A stretch of 64,000 bases of DNA, taken from the NCBI GenBank assembly GCA_951406725.2, contig OX597816.1, forward strand, positions 97,340,001 to 97,404,000, read 5' to 3'. A program made the position numbers and the translations under genes. How positions within the stretch are numbered: the stretch's first letter is position 1; each line of letters begins with the position of its first letter. This DNA is from Octopus vulgaris (taxonomy: Eukaryota). Below, in pieces: positions 19,684 to 58,397 of the stretch. Under the pieces are notes generated by a model. That model was not told where the DNA came from, made no database searches, and was given only the letters and a program-made list of their open reading frames with translations.

Positions 19684-19880
19684 TCGAAACTAGTTTGCTC
19701 TGTGAATAAATCTATTTAAAAACGACCACACGTTTTACAGTTGATAAACGCAATATATGTATGTGCTACTATTAGTTTCATCTGGTGTGAGCATAACAAG
19801 CAGTGTTTTTAACACGTCTGGTGCCCTAGCACATGAAACGAACAGAGCCACATAAATACATATATTATGTTTATTGAATA
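19684..19880 (+). mobile_element. Inverted partial copy of the Penelope-like 3' terminus
   Basis: Reverse-complement match to 20015-20282 (cgaaactagtttgct...ggtgccctagcac...gccacataaatac). Confidence 0.8.
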
Positions 19881-19973
19881 ATACATATGTATATATGAGT
19901 GTGTGTGTGTATGTGTGGTAGGAGTGGGGGTGGGATGTGTGTGCCTGTGTGTTTATGCGTGCGTACATACATA

Positions 19974-20014
<41 letters not shown>

Positions 20015-20016
<2 letters not shown>

Positions 20017-21255
20017 CATTTTATAAATATAATATATGTATTTATGTGGCACTATTCGTTTCAAGTGCTAGGGCACCAGACGAGTTAAAAACACTGGTAT
20101 GCTCTCACCACATGAAAGTAACAGTAGCACATACACACACACACACACACACACATACATACACTCATACATGCATGCATACATACATACATACATACAT
20201 ACATACATACATTGCGTTTATCAACTGAAAAACGTGTAGTCGTTTCTAAATAGATTTAATCACATAGCAAACTAGTTTCGATAAGTTTTTGCATATCAAT
20301 GGTACAAATACATATAAAAAGTGAGATTTAGGGGGGTGTAAAATTACAAGGTAAAGATTGGAGAAACATATTCAAACCATCAAGTATTCAAATGTTCACA
20401 GAAAGTTCAATGAATTTCACAGGGATAGGCAGGCATATCAGTGTAAATGCTGCGCGAAGATCATAACAAATGTACATCATTGAAAGTTCAGTCATATTTA
20501 GTTTTCATAAAATAAGTGGAGTAGAAAGAGTAAAAGGTGGAGAGAAAGAAAAAAGTATTTCTTTTTACAATTTCTGTCGGGGTGCGGGCAGTTCTTTTTT
20601 TCAATTTCGCTCTCAATGCACTGGTCTCTTCACCGTTTAGGACTTGTTGAAAGTGGAAAATACTTTGCGTTCAATCTTTTGATATTTCTTTTATTCTTTT
20701 ACATGTTTCTGTCATCTGACTGTTGCCATGCGGGAGCACCTTCTGATATATTTTTTTTGCGGAAAAAATTCTAATTTTTGACTGGTTATAATTTTGATGA
20801 TGTCTTATTCTTTTGTCGCGGACGTTTTGGTCAAAACATAGTTTTGTTTTGGCAAAGTTTAGTGTTTTGATTGGTTGGCTTGCTGGTAACAACCACGGTC
20901 AAGAGACAAGTACTAAATTTTTGTAGGTTTCGTGTCACTTTATTTTGATCAAAAATATTTTCCGTTTTGGACAAAATAAGTTTGTTTTCGTAAAGTTCAG
21001 CATTCTGCTTAGTTGAGTTCCGTGTAGGGACTCGGTAATACACTTTCGCTTGATGGTCATGCACCGTTCCAGTTGGTTGGTTCCCTTAAGAAGTAACTGT
21101 TATTTTTTTTTGTGAGGGTCCGGTTCAGAAAAAAGAGAAATTATATCTGCTGTCTTTGTTCGTTTTACGTGGAAAAACCAGGTTTTAAATGCGGTTTGTC
21201 TTTTTTAATGAGCATGCTTTCCATATGCAATCAGAATTGGGTTGAAGTGTTTCCG

Positions 21256-21308
<53 letters not shown>

Positions 21309-21540
21309 TCTGATATTTCAGATTTATGTCTGCGGGACATTGATCTAAGTGAGCGTTTACGGGAATTTTCCTGGTCGTTGTGTCCCGGATCTGTTCCCTG
21401 CATACCGTCAAGGTAAAGCCCGTTTGACCTATGTAGTCACCCACCACACCCTCCACATTTGAGGACATAAATTAAATTATTCGATGCGCAAGTGAAATTA
21501 CTTTTTATGGTAAATATTTGATCTGACTTTAAATTATATG
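20015..21540 (-). mobile_element. Penelope-like element, 5'-truncated inverted copy (GIY-YIG to pLTR)
   Basis: FTCASNNLIYVLKCGGC..DYIGQTG...KIPVNAHLDQC GIY-YIG motif; colinear with 22750-23940; degenerate hammerhead at 20265-20304. Confidence 0.85.
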
Positions 21541-23977
21541 ACAGAAAGTAGTGAAATTATCGAATGTAAATGTTTTGAAACCTCATTAATGCATAAATCA
21601 GAAAATAACCGGAATTCTGAAACAAGAAAAACACAGCATCATATGTAAACTGCTTTCTGATATCAAGAAAGCTTTACTCCAAATATGGGCCAAAAATGAT
21701 AAAAGCGCAAATTGGCTTTCTGGAACACGATCAAAAACACCAACAAAGCTGAGAAATACGAGAGATAGCTCAACTTAAGGCGGCAAGCTGGCAGAATCGT
21801 TAGTACGCCGGGCGAAATGCTTAGCGATATTTCGTCTGCCGTTACGTTCTGAGTTCAAATTCCGCCGAGTTCGACTTTGCCTTTCTTCCTTTCAGGGTCG
21901 ATTAAATAAGTACCAGTTACGCACTGGGGTCGATATAACCGACTTAATCTTTTTGTCTGTCCTTGTTTGTCCCCTCTCTGTGTAGCCCTTTGTGGGCAGT
22001 AAAAATATAAGATAGCTGAGTTAACTTCCTATATGTCATGGCATACTTGGAAGTCCAAATATACGAACACGCTAGACTGAAAGTTGAAGACAACTTCAAA
22101 GAATACTTACTCGCCAACTAGAAACGCTACCCGAACAATTGTTTCATTCTGTGGTCACATATCCTTGAGCAACTCTCAGAATTTAAAAACTTAGCAACAT
22201 TAACCACGGTATCCAATTTACAATGGAATATTAACATTGAAATTGACATTTACTTTAAACTAACGGACTCAAAACAATATCTCCTCTTCTCTTTCTTCCA
22301 CCTAAAGAATATTAAAGTCAATGTATCTTTCAACTTGACAAAAAGAATTTGCACGATTACATCAAATCCCGAAACCCGAGATAAACAACTCCAAGAGTTT
22401 TAAAATATATTACTAGAAAGAAAATGCCCGGTTAGGACTTGCAAAAATGACAGACATCCAACAAGTACAAGAATCAAGAATTCTCCATAACACACTTAAA
22501 ACTTTATCTTATGTATCAACATGCAATCAAAGGAACATGGAAGCAAGCAACATAATCTGCCAAAATATACTCCTGCTTCTGAACGACCTGCAACTGAAAA
22601 AAAGCACTTGAAGCACATAAAATTATTACGAGTAAAAGATAACCCAAATACCTAAAAATATACCAGCGCCATATTACCCCCCAAAAATACAACCCCACGA
22701 GTCAAAAAGTACAACCGCCCTTCCTGCAGGACTCGTATTTCCCTTTAGGTTCAATATATAAATTCAAGTCAAATCAAATATTCACCATAAAAAGTAGCTT
22801 CACCCGTGCATCGAAGAATTTAATTTATGCCGTCAGATGTGGAAGGTGACTACATAGGTCAAACTAGCTTCACCTTGAGGGACAGACCGACGGTACGAAG
22901 GGTAGAGATTCGAGACACAACAACCAGGAAAATTCCTATAAACAATCACTTAGATCAATGCTCTGCAGACATAAATCCGAAATATAATATTTCTCTCTCT
23001 CTCTCTCTCTCTCAATGCACCCGGATCACTTCAACTCAATTCTGATTGCATATGGAAAGCATACTCATTAAAAATGACAAACCGCAACTAAATATCCTAT
23101 AATAACACACTAGAAAGTGAAAATACAATTTTTCCACAAAAATTTACCGCAGACAAGAAATACAATTCGAGAATTTAAAGTAACCAAACTCCAAATTACT
23201 ACACAATAACACCAAATACCTTCTCAAAACAGCAGTTGCTAACGTCAATTGTAACAAAGCCAATGAAATTTCCCTCTAGTGAGAAACGGATCCTGAGGAA
23301 AAAAACAACAAAAACTCACAGTTACTTCTTAAGGGAAACAATCAACGGGAACAGTGGATGACACTCAGGCAAAAACAAATTATAGCGTCACTACAAGGAA
23401 TTCAACTAAGCAGAACTATACGAAAACAAAACTATTTTGTCCAAATCAGAAAATATTTTTGATCAAAATAAAGTTACATCACAAAATCTGCAATCAATCA
23501 TGACTTGTCTCTTAACCATGGTCGTCACCTGCAAGTTAATCAAAGCAGTAAATTTTGCCAAAACGAAAATAAGTTTTGACCAAAACGTCCACAACAAAAG
23601 AATAAGACGTCATCAAAATTATAACCTATCAAAAATTAGATCCTTTTCCGTAAACACATACATAAACTAAAAGATTGAAACCCAAATATTTTCCAATTCC
23701 AACAAGCTGTGACCAGTGAACTGAGAGTGAAACTGAAATAAATAACTACACGCACCACGACAACAATTGTAAAAAGAAAATCACTTTTTCTTTCTCTCCA
23801 CCTCGTCCAATTTTTACTTTGTAAATTCTAACTCACCTAAACCTCCCACTTTTATATATATTTGTACCATTGATAAGGAAAATTTGTCGAAACTAGTTTG
23901 CTATGTGAATAAATCTATTTACAAACGACTACACGTATTTCAGATTCAAGTGCATTTTCACAACCCAAAACAGATTC

Positions 23978-24084: not shown

Positions 24085-24420
24085 ATATATGTCTTCTATC
24101 CATTCTCTTGTCAAAGAAAATATTTCTCCATCGTTCTGTTTCCTTGTATGTCCCCACTGTCATGTTTTTGATCCCAACTTTGACTCTCCATAAATCCCAA
24201 ATGTTATTTTAGCACTTATGGGAGAAACTGTATTCGAAGAGTCATATTGTCGTTCAGTTCTCGAAGTGAAGAGTGGATAGACAGCCGACAACTGATGAAG
24301 GGTCATTCTTAATGTTACTTGTCCTGTTTTCCAGTTGTTTCTCTCGTTCTTTGCGTATTGAACTCTTTTGTTTTCATATTTCATGTTATTTACTGTTGGT
24401 GACGTCCTGTACACATATAT
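24085..24420 (+). mobile_element. pLTR-like module with degenerate hammerhead (24181-24244) and a second half-motif (about 24286-24325)
   Basis: Stem I tgactct/agagtca, stem II tccca/tggga, GAAA present, core decayed to CCATAAA; second motif gacaa CTGATGA...ttgtc lacks GAAA; flanked by (TA)n. Confidence 0.55.
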
Positions 24421-24577
24421 GCACGTATATATATATATATATGTATCATATAATTAAGGGCTAAAGAGGGTTATTCTAAAGCCAATACACTGATTTATCC
24501 ACTTATAATCCGCTTGCTACAGGAGAATTGAAACTGAAAACGGGCAACTAACCTTTAGAAAATTTAAATTTCGTTAT

Positions 24578-24639
24578 CTCTATATTGAATCAATTTCGGA
24601 ATTAATCTTATAAAAAGATATATTCTTTCTTCAGTAGAG
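24578..24639 (-). ncRNA. Type I hammerhead ribozyme motif (left arm)
   Basis: Exact reverse complement of 24765-24826. Confidence 0.65.
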
Positions 24640-24764
24640 CTTTCGATGGGATATAAATAAAATACTCACGTATGATCATGGAAAAAGCACAAGCTAAAAC
24701 ATAACTACACTTGAGTACATCACTTATATCTAAAAATAAAAATTTATTTATATCCCATCGAAAG

Positions 24765-24826
24765 CTCTACTGAAGAAAGAATATATCTTTTTATAAGATT
24801 AATTCCGAAATTGATTCAATATAGAG
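24765..24826 (+). ncRNA. Type I hammerhead ribozyme motif (right arm)
   Basis: ctcta CTGAAGA [stem II gaat/attc and atctt/aagat, base imperfect] GAAA ttg att caa TA tagag. Confidence 0.65.
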
Positions 24827-25238
24827 ATAACGAAATTTAAATTTTCTAAAGGTTAGTTGCCCGTTTTCAGTTTCAATTCTCCTGTAGCAAGCGGATTATA
24901 AGTGGATAAATCAGTGTAATGGCTTTAGAATAACCCTCTTTAGCCCTTAATTATATGATGTTTATACTTCAACCGTAACGGTTTTTTTAAATATACTGCC
25001 CACGCTTCCTGATGGATTCTTTTTCTGTAGAGAAAGGGACTTCATCCTATATTGCTAGTATATATATATATATATAAATTGTATAATATAGCAGCATTTT
25101 CGAACTTCATTTTTTACAAATATATATATATATATATATATATATTTAAACATAATAATTAGTGGTTTGAGTTTTCTACTGCTCTTTCTAGCACAAGGCT
25201 TTCCTATTTGGAAGCCTCTTAATGTGTTCTAATGTACA

Positions 25239-25305
<67 letters not shown>

Positions 25306-27927: not shown

Positions 27928-28304
27928 GTATATATATATGAATGTATGTATGCATGTCAGAATATCCTTCCTTGTACGTTGTTTATAAAAAGTATGATAA
28001 CATGTTCTCAACATGTAGGATAGATTTTAATTACTTGTATATTTATTGCAGTGTCAGAATATTTTTCCCCTTTTTGCATAGATTTTCTCAGGAATCTTGG
28101 ATAACTGTGAAGCCTCTTTATAAAACCAAACACATTTTCACTTGTATTTTTACTTATTTGTACTTATTCCTTCGGTTAAAACAGGAGTTCTCAACAAGTG
28201 TCCATATGGCCCTTGGAAGTCCATATAAGATTTTCTTGTTAAAATATATACGCAATAAATTGCTTATACATCTACATATTAGTTTTTGTTTTTATACAAT
28301 TTAT

Positions 28305-28525
28305 AACAAAAGCACGCAGAGAGCGCAAACCTCCGTCAAGACAACACCAAGGTCTTCTCAACGATTAGCCGGAATTGATTTTTAGAATGAGAATATTTGA
28401 AAGAAACTCGATTGCTCTCACAAACGAGAATACTAAAAATGAACCTGACCGCTCTCAAAAATTAATTAAAAAAAAAGAAAAAGCGGAAAAATAATCCAGA
28501 ATTGTCCGGTACCTGATCGATCCCA
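28305..28525 (-). mobile_element. Helentron-like non-autonomous element (HINE), 3' part
   Basis: Reverse-complement match to about 29640-29855. Confidence 0.7.
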
Positions 28526-29164
28526 ATGGTAGTCATGGAATGTGAAGTTGGGTGTACGGGCTATGTTTGTAATACTGTGTGTGTGACGTCTGCAGTGGCA
28601 AGAGAGAGAGTTTTCTCTATGATGGCCTTTTTTAGTCTATACACTGATATAGTGTTTTTTCGACCATTAAGATCTATAGCGAAAAATTTGTCCGTGCGTA
28701 AAAGAAACAGAAAGGACCTGCATATGGTTCTGTTAAAAGAGGTTTAAAAACATGGTTACGCACACAAACGTGAGTCCAAGCAGTAATGCTTCCTTCAAGG
28801 CCAAGCTAGAAATGCAATTGTTAAGTAGGTAAGAGGTTTTAAACAGGAGCGATATGTTCAAAATTGCTGAAACTAAACATTGCCGAGGATAAATAAAATT
28901 TATTATTGTTACTGAATATGTTAGTCTGTTTAATTTCTTAACAGTTTCGCTGACGTTTATTTATGTAGTTTGATTTCTTTATCCATTAGTTTCTACTAAG
29001 AGACGCGAGTATAATTAATAATAGAAGACAAAAAAAACTTTGGAAACAGCAACGCCGTCATAGCTTACGCGAAAACCATGAGCGTGCTTTCAAGGGAAAT
29101 AATCAGAGTAAGACTTGAAAGTCTGTAAGATCGTAATACTTCATGTAGAATAAAGTAAGTATAA

Positions 29165-29347
29165 CAAATAATCTAAAATCCTTGTTCGGTACTGGATCAA
29201 TCCTAAAATCTTATCAGTTCATGCCTGTCATGTGGCCAAACATCCCCGAAAGTTTCATCCGAATCCATCTAGCAGTTCTTGAGATATCCTGTACACGGAC
29301 AAACAAACACGACTGTAAGCAATACCTCCGCCTTAGCGATGGCGGAG
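29165..29347 (-). mobile_element. Helentron-like non-autonomous element (HINE), 5' part
   Basis: Reverse-complement match to about 29510-29680, including the acctccgcc/ggcggag palindrome. Confidence 0.7.
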
Positions 29348-29506
29348 AAAAGAATGTGTGATTATAAAAATACACTAGGATGTATTTTTATACGCATCGA
29401 ATGGCCATGGCTGTCTAGCAGAGTAAAATATGATTCGAAGCGATTTGGCGAACAATGGTTGGTTCCACTGGTTAAAACGAACGCTTATGTTAGAATGTAC
29501 TTCTAG

Positions 29507-29855
29507 TTACCTCCGCCTTGGCTAAGGCAGAGGTATTGGTTCCAGTGGTGCTTGTTTGTTTGTCCGTGGACAAGATATCTCAAGAACCGCTGGATGGATT
29601 CGGATGAAATTTCAGGGAACGAACTGATTAGATTTTGGGATCGATCCGGTAGGGGATAATGATTTTGGATTATTTTTCCTGATTTTTTTTTTACTTAATT
29701 TTAGAGAGCGGTGGGGTTCATTTTTAGCATTCTCATTTGAGAGACCAGTCAACTTTATTTCAGATATTCACAGTTTAAAAATGATCTCTGGCTAATCGTT
29801 GAGAGGATGTTGGTGTTGCCTTAGCGGAGGGTTGCGCTCTCTGAGCGCTCTTGTT
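29507..29855 (+). mobile_element. Complete Helentron-like non-autonomous element (HINE)
   Basis: 5' ttacctccgcc..ggcagaggta subterminal palindrome, (gttt)n tract, 3' gcggagg subTIR, terminal hairpin gcgctc-tct-gagcgc, T-rich ends. Confidence 0.78.
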
Positions 29856-30099
29856 TTATAATAATTCTCCTGTGAATAGATGTAATTAACTAATATAAGA
29901 TTTCTTGAAGTTAGTACTCTCAGTTGTGTCTGAATTTGCATTTATGAAATTCATGAATAATTGGTTGTGGTAAGAGCTTTGGAGTCCAATGATACAGATA
30001 CTTCTGCAATGTACAAAAATGTTACACATGTGCGTAAATACATATATACATATGTATATGTATATATATATATATACACACAAATATATATATATATAT

Positions 30100-30256: not shown

Positions 30257-30311
<55 letters not shown>

Positions 30312-30413
30312 GGAGTAAACACATAAATGTGAAACAAGGTGGAAAAAAGAGTACTCAAATACCAGTGGTAGAGTAATATGCTTTATTTTAAGCAGTAGAA
30401 AATTCAACAAAAT

Positions 30414-30451
30414 CTGTTACTCTGAGTTTCTCGTTGCCGTTCATCAGACAG
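30414..30451 (-). ncRNA. Minimal type I hammerhead ribozyme
   Basis: ctgt CTGATGA acg gcaa cga GAAA ctc a gag TA acag; core intact, near-palindromic stem III, stem II closing pair is an A-A mismatch. Confidence 0.8.
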
Positions 30452-30531
30452 TTTGTCTGATGAACGGCAACGAGAAACTCAGAGTATCAGATTTTGTTGA
30501 TGAACGGCAACGAGAAACTCAGAGTAACAGA
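30452..30531 (+). ncRNA. Tandem pair of minimal type I hammerhead motifs
   Basis: CTGATGA acggcaacga GAAA ctcagag TA at 30457-30486, repeated 40 nt later with a TTGATGA core. Confidence 0.7.
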
Positions 30532-30561
30532 TTTTGTTGAATTTTCTGCTGCTTAAAATAA

Positions 30562-30612
<51 letters not shown>

Positions 30613-31039
30613 AATCGATCTCCATACATATATGTGTATACGAACATGTGTGACCATACATACATGTCAGGTCATTTATGAGGCTCTCATAAGTGCTATT
30701 GGTAACATGGAATCCCTTACAACCTGTGGCATGGTCGGGTTTTCAGCGACTAAACCGGCAGCACCACCAGGCTACCCTGGTGAGGAGGATTGCTAGAAAC
30801 CCAGCAGGATTACTTACATACACACACACGCCCATATATATGTATATATATATATATATATAATAAATATTAGGGAATAAATCCAAATTTACAGGGAAAA
30901 AAAATCAGATTTAGGATTAAATCCAATTTTATAGTAAAATATTATATAATATTAATTAGAGACAAAACCACTATTTTGCAAAACAAACAAGGAAAGACTT
31001 AATCAATACATAAAATTTTAATAAAAAGTAAAAAAACCG

Positions 31040-31082
31040 CCACTACAATTGTTTCTTGTCCTGATCGACAATCTTCAGGTGG
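31040..31082 (-). ncRNA. Minimal type I hammerhead ribozyme, fully canonical core
   Basis: ccac CTGAAGA ttgtc gatcag gacaa GAAA caattg TA gtgg. Confidence 0.88.
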
Positions 31083-31142
31083 ATTTCCAATAAGTCAGTT
31101 TCAAATTATGAAGTCATAATTTGAAACTGACTTATTTGAAAT

Positions 31143-31185
31143 CCACCTGAAGATTGTCGATCAGGACAAGAAGCAATTGTAGTGG
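31143..31185 (+). ncRNA. Type I hammerhead copy with GAAA>GAAG substitution
   Basis: ccac CTGAAGA ttgtc gatcag gacaa GAAG caattg TA gtgg. Confidence 0.7.
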
Positions 31186-31269
31186 CGGTTGTTTTACTTT
31201 TTATTAAAATTTTATGTATTGATTAAGTCTTTCCTTGTTTGTTTTGCAAAATAGTGGTTTTGTCTCTAA

Positions 31270-31336
<67 letters not shown>

Positions 31337-36282: not shown

Positions 36283-36338
36283 TCATGATTTTACCAGACA
36301 TTGGTGTTGTAAGATATTAATAGTGTACCAGTTAATAA

Positions 36339-36872
36339 TTTAACAAGGTGTTGAGTTGCGCAGCTATTCGTGCATGGCTTTCACCAAATCTTTTGATCCG
36401 GTAGACTTGAATTCCATTTTACTCCCGGGGCCTTACAGTTGCTCATATTTGTTTTTTGCTGATTTTTTTTCACTTCATTAACTGAAATGACTAGTTATAC
36501 CTGTTTTGGAAAGACTACTGTTTGTTTTAGTTCTTGCAACTATTCAATATCCTTCTTGTGTTCCTTGTCTTTGCTCCAGATGTCACTCCAAAACATTTGA
36601 CTTTCAATGTTATCTGGTATCAACTTTTCATCTGTACATTCCATTTATTTCTTTCTAGAATATCTTCTAATCTACCCTGAATAACCTATTCTGGTGGTAA
36701 ACCTTCATTCTTTGGCCGTATCTTACCATCTTTGCTTTCTTTGCAACGAGTCGCCGTTTCAGTTCCTCCACTACTAATTTCAGGCTCTTCCTTTCAATAT
36801 TATACTTCCTTTTCAGCGACCTGCATTTTTGTTCACTTTTAAGTTCCCCTATCTCTTTTCGGTCTAACACAG
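36339..36872 (-). mobile_element. Inverted internal segment of an R4/Dong LINE
   Basis: Matches about 55418-55947 (LKRKYNI..VVEELK..HQNRLFRVD). Confidence 0.88.
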
Positions 36873-36879
36873 TGATTTC

Positions 36880-37545
36880 CTATTTGAAGTAGAAAAGTCA
36901 GGCTTGTGCAAACATATAGCACTATACAAGAAATTGAAAACGAATAACACTGAAAATAGGTAGGTAAAGACAACAATGCATGGTCACTTACATCGGGATG
37001 TTGAAGATAAGACAGACAGAGAAAAAACATGGTTGTGGATGACTAAAAGTGATTGAAAACCGGAAACGGAGGCATCGTCGAAAATAGGAAAGCAAAGATC
37101 CTATGGGATTTTATGATTCAGCGCGACAATGAGATAGATAATAGGAAGCCGGGCATAGTCTTGATTGAGAAAAAGAAAAAAACAAACTATGCTGGATTAT
37201 AGATATAGCATGCCCAGCTGGCAACAAGGTATGCGATATGGAAGAAAAAAAAGTTGAGAGATATGACAAGTTAGCTTGGGAAGTTAAGGAGTTGTGGTCG
37301 ATGAAAAATGTAGCAGTAGTACCAAAAATTGTCGGAGCCCTGGGAACAGTGAGCAAAAATTTCGAGAAGTACGTGGAACAAATAGGGGCTGCTATAAGAG
37401 TGGAGCACTTGCAGAAAACGACAATACTTCGGAAGGTGCTCGAAAAATAAGAGCTGTTGGCTTAGTTCACTGGTTGTGAATAGCTGACACTGTAGTACAT
37501 CACTAGCGTTAGAAGTTGTGCAAAGGCAATAATGATAATAATAAT
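36880..37545 (+). mobile_element. 3' end of an R4/Dong LINE with RLE domain and (TAA)n tail
   Basis: Matches about 57150-58060 with an internal deletion; IIDIACP..E..K..RY..L..E..VVPKIVGALG. Confidence 0.9.

Positions 37546-54471: not shown

Positions 54472-58397
<3,926 letters not shown>

Follow-up and report, generated by a model that had tools for sequence, protein, structure and literature searches.

A hammerhead-bearing inverted repeat of Octopus vulgaris with a recurring inner junction: a candidate non-autonomous derivative of Penelope-like elements

Introduction

Insertions of Penelope-like elements (PLEs) are described by Craig et al. (2021, PMC8557442) as containing an inverted 5'-truncated copy, often with a tail of 30-40 bp at one end, and as biased towards (TA)n targets that hide the TSDs. 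The same article describes non-autonomous PLEs and names the formation of the inverted repeats as a task for in vitro work. In the account of Frangieh et al. (2024, PMC11167929) the tail corresponds to the distance that separates two RT start sites, and insertion in vitro is independent of hammerhead cleavage. Self-priming was proposed for inverted junctions by Arkhipova et al. (2013, PMC3846280), who also describe pLTRs alone as enough for mobilisation in trans. The hammerheads of PLEs are characterized by Cervera and de la Pena (2014, PMC4209133) by a long helix II, a helix I of 4-5 bp, a base between positions 9 and 10.1, the pair G10.1-C11.1 and a palindromic helix III. According to this source they form pairs on opposite strands at a distance of 100-700 bp, and their cleavage is low and dimer-dependent. 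For the definition of non-LTR retrozymes we relied on the descriptions in PMC7229834 and bioRxiv 10.64898/2026.07.22.740005.

The locus analyzed here is located in a stretch of 64,000 nucleotides from Octopus vulgaris (contig OX597816.1, positions 97,340,001 to 97,404,000), in the following called the window. An earlier note, made from the letters alone, had pointed to an inverted repeat with hammerhead motifs within this stretch. The inverted hammerhead architecture of the unit is already known from other systems, and the less ordinary part is an inner junction which recurs in contigs of public sequencing runs.

Materials and Methods

All positions refer to the window. A part of 24445-25240 was present in 20 of 24 listed runs, which carried four organism labels, none with more than 57% of the sampled words. 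Four of these runs, all consisting of contigs, were compared with 24662-25240 at 80% likeness: X1, X3 and X7 (organism A) and X6 (organism C). Between 83 and 877 contigs were aligned per run. Loose ends and pieces are those listed, which comprise 24 of 221 loose-end entries and 32 of 2,723 piece entries.

Results

The unit is an inverted repeat of 0.6 kb with an 81-nt spacing between its arms. Alignment of the arms gave 216 matches in 217 positions with a single mismatch (24485/24919), exactly the one-base difference that had been counted by eye before. The repeat search stretches the arms to 224 nt at 98% identity, as it adds 7 terminal bases and 3 more mismatches. On the right side only, an extension of 99 nt leads from the arm to a (TA)9 run, in agreement with the roughly 100 bp given in the earlier note. 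The unit has the layout of a head-to-head inverted 5'-truncated copy with a tail at one end only, and the (TA)n runs on both sides mask any TSD. Inverted repeats at both termini, as they are typical of MITEs, are lacking, since the right end of this copy reaches 92-99 nt past the arm. Head-to-tail tandem hammerhead units of the retrozyme type were not found in the repeat comparisons of the window, and the motifs of the unit are located on opposite strands. A similarity search detected no further copy of the unit within the 64 kb.

No open frame extends across 24445-25058, as all six frames are closed. Comparison of this region (spacer, arms and tail) with 150 PLE proteins, and with a profile built from 20 of them, gave no match, and the comparison revealed no autonomous partner, which the earlier note had proposed to look for upstream of the spacer sequence. 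The idea that the spacer represents the end of a GIY-YIG ORF is unsupported by the frames and by the PLE protein and profile searches. An intron within arm and tail was also considered, and no matching joint was present among those listed in the contigs of the runs.

Table 1. Coordinates of the inverted repeat, its parts and related features of the window
Feature	Position	Strand	Evidence
Older decayed PLE, head-to-head; arms with 875 matches and 150 mismatches (85% of 1,025)	20225..23943	.	profile search, alignment
Inverted GIY-YIG remnant of the older PLE	21538-21244	-	profile search
RT-thumb to GIY-YIG remnants of the older PLE (profile E 4e-31)	22035-23093	+	profile search
Left (TA)8 run, likely belonging to the target	24426..24441	.	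sequence
Left arm, the shorter side: tail-less inverted pLTR-like copy; stops 7 nt before the common family end	24445..24661	-	arm alignment, contigs
Left-arm hammerhead motif, type I; core start 24634; mirrors 24765-24826	24578..24639	-	motif search
Spacer, 81 nt, without protein match; left-arm junction found again in the family	24662..24742	+	contigs, protein search
Right arm, pLTR-like; private change at 24919	24743..24959	+	arm alignment, contigs
Type I hammerhead motif of the right arm	24765..24826	+	motif search, folding, contigs
One-sided tail; 92 nt if counted from the family short end 24966	24960..25058	+	sequence, contigs
(TA)9 run on the right	25059..25076	.	sequence
Fold-back unit of unrelated sequence: tail 30310-30375, arms 30376-30450 / 30454-30567 with a loop of 3 nt, a minimal hammerhead-like core and (TA)n at either end	30310..30567	.	
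Fold-back unit of unrelated sequence: tail 30863-30948, arms 30949-31111 / 31114-31276, 2-nt loop, hammerhead core 31078 (-), (TA)n on both sides	30863..31276	.	

The one-sided extension next to (TA)n recurs at 30.3 kb (66 nt) and at 30.9 kb (86 nt), as claimed before, and all three young units examined in the window have a (TA)n microsatellite as target. The earlier note had attributed this asymmetry to a shared insertion mechanism; the comparison supports this and equates the shape with the inverted pLTR and one-sided tail of PLEs. Both additional units also contain a palindromic stem III. In the right arm of the 30.3-kb unit (30454-30567) 39 nt of the hammerhead region are duplicated in tandem, and the fold-back pivot is located at the 5' edge of stem I. 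Two other repeats of the window are a decayed LINE-like element at 54764-57913, in which 56355-57053 matches RVT_1 (E 1.4e-4) and pieces of which recur at 36338-37545, and nested inverted copies of a dispersed repeat at 28302-29858, which are 75-82% alike.

At a distance of 1.4 kb the window contains an older, decayed PLE of a different family with the same head-to-head layout, which serves as a local positive control for the layout. With the RT fragment of this neighbor a HMMER search yielded 256 proteins and a word-index protein search none of 61 candidates. RVT_1 and/or GIY-YIG Pfam domains were found in 7 of the 9 proteins scanned among its relatives. The older element is interrupted at about 21775-21949 by a repeat with other copies in the window. 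Beside it, at 19684-20281, lies an inverted unit with 188 matches and 21 mismatches, whose outer end resembles 23887-23943.

Each arm of the young unit contains one type I hammerhead motif which reads outward and has a long stem II, as the earlier note had described; the core of the left arm starts at 24634 (-). In the right arm, stem I comprises 5 bp (24765-69/24822-26) and encloses CUGAAGA (24770-76), a stem II region of 30 nt (24777-24806), GAAA (24807-10), a near-palindromic stem III of 9 nt (24811-19) and UA (24820-21). The ribozyme cut is predicted after 24821. Within the stem II region 4 bp, a 2x2 loop, 5 bp and a 5-nt loop follow each other, with an extra A at 24777, and the unit shows the features of a minimal type I hammerhead with an additional base at 9/10.1 and a palindromic stem III. 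This copy has an A at 10.1 (24778) opposite C11.1 and is therefore without the canonical G10.1-C11.1 pair. Loss of this pair lowers hammerhead activity, and A10.1 likely weakens the predicted hammerhead of this copy.

A strict descriptor of the motif found three sites in the window, namely both arms and 31078 on the minus strand; the motif at 30.3 kb is missed owing to a stem II of just 2 bp. The same descriptor found no site in 20,000 dinucleotide-shuffled arms and none in 40 shuffled windows, a lenient null for a descriptor written post hoc. A search with Rfam at the gathering score gave no match across the 64 kb, which is not counter-evidence to a minimal hammerhead. The folding energy of the 73-nt motif is no better than that of shuffled sequences (z -1.5), and the minimum-energy fold (-9.1 kcal/mol) is more stable than the hammerhead topology (-5.2 kcal/mol). 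For self-pairing through stem III a value of -6.7 kcal/mol was obtained. In a transcript of the full unit, irrespective of the strand, the hammerhead is predicted to be wholly paired inside the long duplex of 217 bp. This predicted burial suggests that the hammerhead is likely a passenger of the pLTR; as a ribozyme it is predicted to act as a dimer. A decayed hammerhead-like remnant, perhaps from another old pLTR, is located nearby at 24287-24326, where CUGAUGA and a still pairing 5-bp stem I are preserved and the second box is gone.

Judged from the contigs, the repeat belongs to a family of high copy number, members of which occur under two organism labels, and the search for family copies proposed in the earlier note was positive in the contigs of all four runs. 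Spacer, arm and tail are covered in each of these runs, the depth of the tail being similar to that of the spacer. At 24778 a G accounts for 34,422 of a depth of 41,848 in X1 and 48,163 of 48,989 in X6, but only for 907 of 9,407 in X3 and 0 of 130 in X7 (86 of these being a deletion). A is common at this position in X3 and is thus the mark of a sub-lineage rather than a change private to this copy. Insertions and deletions in the contigs are concentrated near loop II (24787-88). Among the loose ends listed, those before 24791 represent a sister subfamily with a deviating stem II and upstream sequence. In X3 (at least 11 contigs) the consensus of this subfamily retains the first core box, but in X6 (at least 5) and X7 (at least 2) the box is not exactly preserved. 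No core variants of 5% or more are listed, a weak result, as this level is reached at no more than 9 positions in the whole 397-nt unit. The exact 30-nt pattern was absent from metagenome contigs and from viral contigs. One locus matching the gapped motif was rejected as a chance match: it lies inside an ORF, which we take to encode a Cdc48-like AAA ATPase, and has no blastn similarity to the window.

At 24967-25000 the beginning of the tail (20-35 nt) is replaced by (TA)n or (TG)n in some contigs, so arm and tail are separable by a microsatellite. To the right of the unit, the stretch of about 95 bp between two (TA)n runs (25145-25240) is a high-depth repeat in all four runs, unrelated to the unit, and the right flank is therefore unusable as a single-copy control. 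A (TA)n run at 25225 forms the end of some contigs, and 25145-25240 is possibly the end of another microsatellite-targeting element.

The junction between left arm and spacer was found as a joint of opposite strands (24662/24743) in three of the four runs. Its depth was 3,160 in X3 (1 contig), 23,692 in X6 (3 contigs) and 44 in X7 (1 contig with a short side of 83 letters), summed contig depth being no copy number; in two of these joints the short side comprises only 19 and 21 letters, respectively, at 80% likeness. In addition, loose ends at 24743 read as the start of the spacer with variant letters in at least 4 contigs of X3, at least 4 of X6 and at least 1 of X7. For X1 no joint 24662/24743 is listed, and this run has two other junctions in single contigs (24743/24900 and a fold-back near 24758). 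The longest contigs among those listed (488-748 letters) have a depth of 35-62. With this depth as a rough single-locus yardstick, the copies of the junction would number tens to hundreds, spread over two organism labels and three studies. The depth of the inner arm (24742-81) is not twice that of the spacer, as would be expected from a pure two-arm unit.

The outer end of the short arm is also shared. In X1 (at least 9 contigs) and X6 (at least 5 contigs) (TA)n follows behind 24966, which identifies the end of the short arm as the family end, with this copy being 7 nt shorter. The earlier statement that the left arm is cut short was for the most part wrong. Since many copies have the same arm/spacer junction and the short end belongs to the family, the hairpin is no one-off truncation. 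As far as the contigs indicate, it was likely passed on as a ready-made unit. In open-access text, with PMC8969392 among the sources consulted, no description of a family-wide fixed inverted junction or of a MITE-like PLE family was found.

Comparison of the arms with the family revealed changes which both arms have in common. Both have C at 24879 and G at 24887, where T (97-100%) and A (94-98%) make up the depth of the family in the four runs; C reaches at most 0-3% and G 2-6%. The A at 24919 is found in the right arm only and in none of the four runs. Independent decay would not give both arms the same rare changes, which points to one template, to conversion or to inheritance from the source copy. 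For three changes gained independently per arm, the probability of at most one difference is 0.017, or about 0.09 when 24778 is left out as a sub-lineage mark. Both arms were likely recopied from one template at insertion; alternatively, the shared changes could be inherited from the source copy or be due to conversion. The arms of the older neighboring PLE are only 85% alike, which argues against lasting conversion in the window, although they are farther apart. Under the octopus rate given in PMC13282606, should it apply here, one difference in 217 positions would correspond to an age of about 0.6 My (0.02-3.6). The earlier proposal of a recent formation or gene conversion stands in part: the arm sequences fit, with two rare changes shared and one private, but the inverted junction is common to many copies and was not made at this site alone.

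Discussion

The unit is probably a non-autonomous PLE derivative with an inherited junction, copied into (TA)n by a separate autonomous element, and its arms were likely recopied from one template at insertion. We favor this explanation because of the PLE hammerhead signatures, the agreement with the published inverted, one-tailed shape next to (TA)n, and the neighbor with RT and GIY-YIG remnants in the same layout. Against it stand the lack of an autonomous partner among the PLE protein and profile matches to the unit and the length of the tail, which with 92-99 nt exceeds the described 30-40 bp. In a possible course of events, the protein of an autonomous PLE would bind the pLTR-like end and its GIY-YIG domain would nick the (TA)n target. 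Reverse transcription would then proceed from the tail end through right arm and spacer to the left arm, whereby the junction would be inherited. The cDNA end may fold back onto the cDNA of the right arm and prime itself, so that the outer left arm would be recopied and the arms would start identical. Resolution of the second end at the short end point would leave the tail one-sided. A more far-reaching formulation, which we put forward only tentatively, is that of a MITE-like retroelement: a protein-less Penelope derivative of 0.6 kb at hundreds of sites, with a fixed hairpin, an inherited loop junction and one arm rebuilt by cDNA fold-back at each insertion.

It is rather unlikely that each copy is a fresh insertion from an ordinary PLE transcript, in which a discrete RNA or cDNA end near 24662 folds back or joins at 24743 and in this way recreates the junction. 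Identical arms would be explained without extra steps, the pivot of each of the three young units lies 0-35 nt upstream of its hammerhead, and the loops of 2-3 nt at 30.3 and 30.9 kb fit the snap-back priming described in PMC3846280. However, two separate fixed points are needed, the predicted cut after 24821 matches neither of them, and the protein and profile searches found no remnant of a PLE ORF in the spacer.

A different history would be that the junction was born once in a PLE insertion and passively multiplied in a tandem array, by segmental duplication or as cargo of a larger element, with gene conversion maintaining the identity of the arms. Depth is blind to whether copies are dispersed or clustered, and the flanks are hidden behind (TA)n. 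We nevertheless regard such a history as unlikely: this copy is isolated between (TA)n runs and has no companion in the window, the junction is found under two organism labels and with variant spacer letters, and the older arms nearby were not homogenized.

The fixed inner structure and the fixed end followed by TA would also suit a long-TIR MITE, for example with a captured pLTR, which a DNA transposase would have inserted at TA sites, and some copies may be tail-less, which contigs cannot reveal. Yet this copy is asymmetric, the tail is covered in all four runs at spacer-like depth, the arms correspond to a whole hammerhead-bearing pLTR-like sequence, and two unrelated families of the window show the same asymmetry, so that we consider a MITE very unlikely. 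The earlier note had set fixed ends against a conserved hammerhead as a test for a MITE; here the ends are fixed and the hammerhead is present, so this test does not discriminate. A non-LTR retrozyme copied via circular RNA, for which the type I hammerhead, the short length and the lack of an ORF might speak, can hardly be considered, as retrozymes are described in PMC7229834 as head-to-tail tandem repeats of about 300 bp and here the motifs are on opposite strands without a tandem unit.

If the unit is a PLE derivative, the numerous copies of its family with their fixed junction make the formation of the PLE inverted repeats testable by sequence, since arms that group by locus would mean that one arm was rebuilt at insertion. 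If the reading as a MITE-like retroelement is true, the family would provide a natural record of many copies for a choice between self-priming and twin priming in PLE integration. Some long-TIR 'MITEs' of TA-rich animal genomes may then be retroelement derivatives. Every intact copy is also a potential source of a 217-bp RNA duplex.

With MITEs the unit shares the short, non-coding form, the long inverted repeats, the fixed inner structure and the TA flanks; it differs in its asymmetric ends and ribozyme-bearing arms, and no link to a transposase was found. The minimal PLE hammerheads described in PMC4209133 are likewise of type I, with an extra base at 9/10.1, a palindromic stem III, a 5-bp stem I and an arrangement in opposite-strand pairs, and their G10.1-C11.1 is held by the majority of the family in X1 and X6, though by a minority in X3 and not in X7. 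In contrast to the 7-8 bp given there for Schistosoma, the stem II region of the unit comprises 30 nt, corresponding to about 10 bp interrupted by an internal loop, and this copy has A10.1. Closest in shape is the inverted-pLTR unit of the C-terminal EN+ PLEs (PMC8557442, PMC3846280), with which it has in common the head-to-head inverted copy, the tail at one end, the hammerhead in the pLTR, a (TA)n that hides the TSD and a pLTR of about 200 bp. The unit differs from it by the missing ORF and the tail of 92-99 nt instead of 30-40 (PMC8557442), and its inner junction recurs over many copies, whereas these sources describe it per insertion. Similar to MRC1 of Chlamydomonas (PMC8557442) and the pLTR-flanked cargo of Adineta vaga (PMC3846280), the unit is non-coding, and a pLTR-like cis sequence is presumed to be sufficient for its mobilisation in trans. 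These two are described as head-to-tail or single events, whereas here a fixed inverted unit appears to have been amplified.
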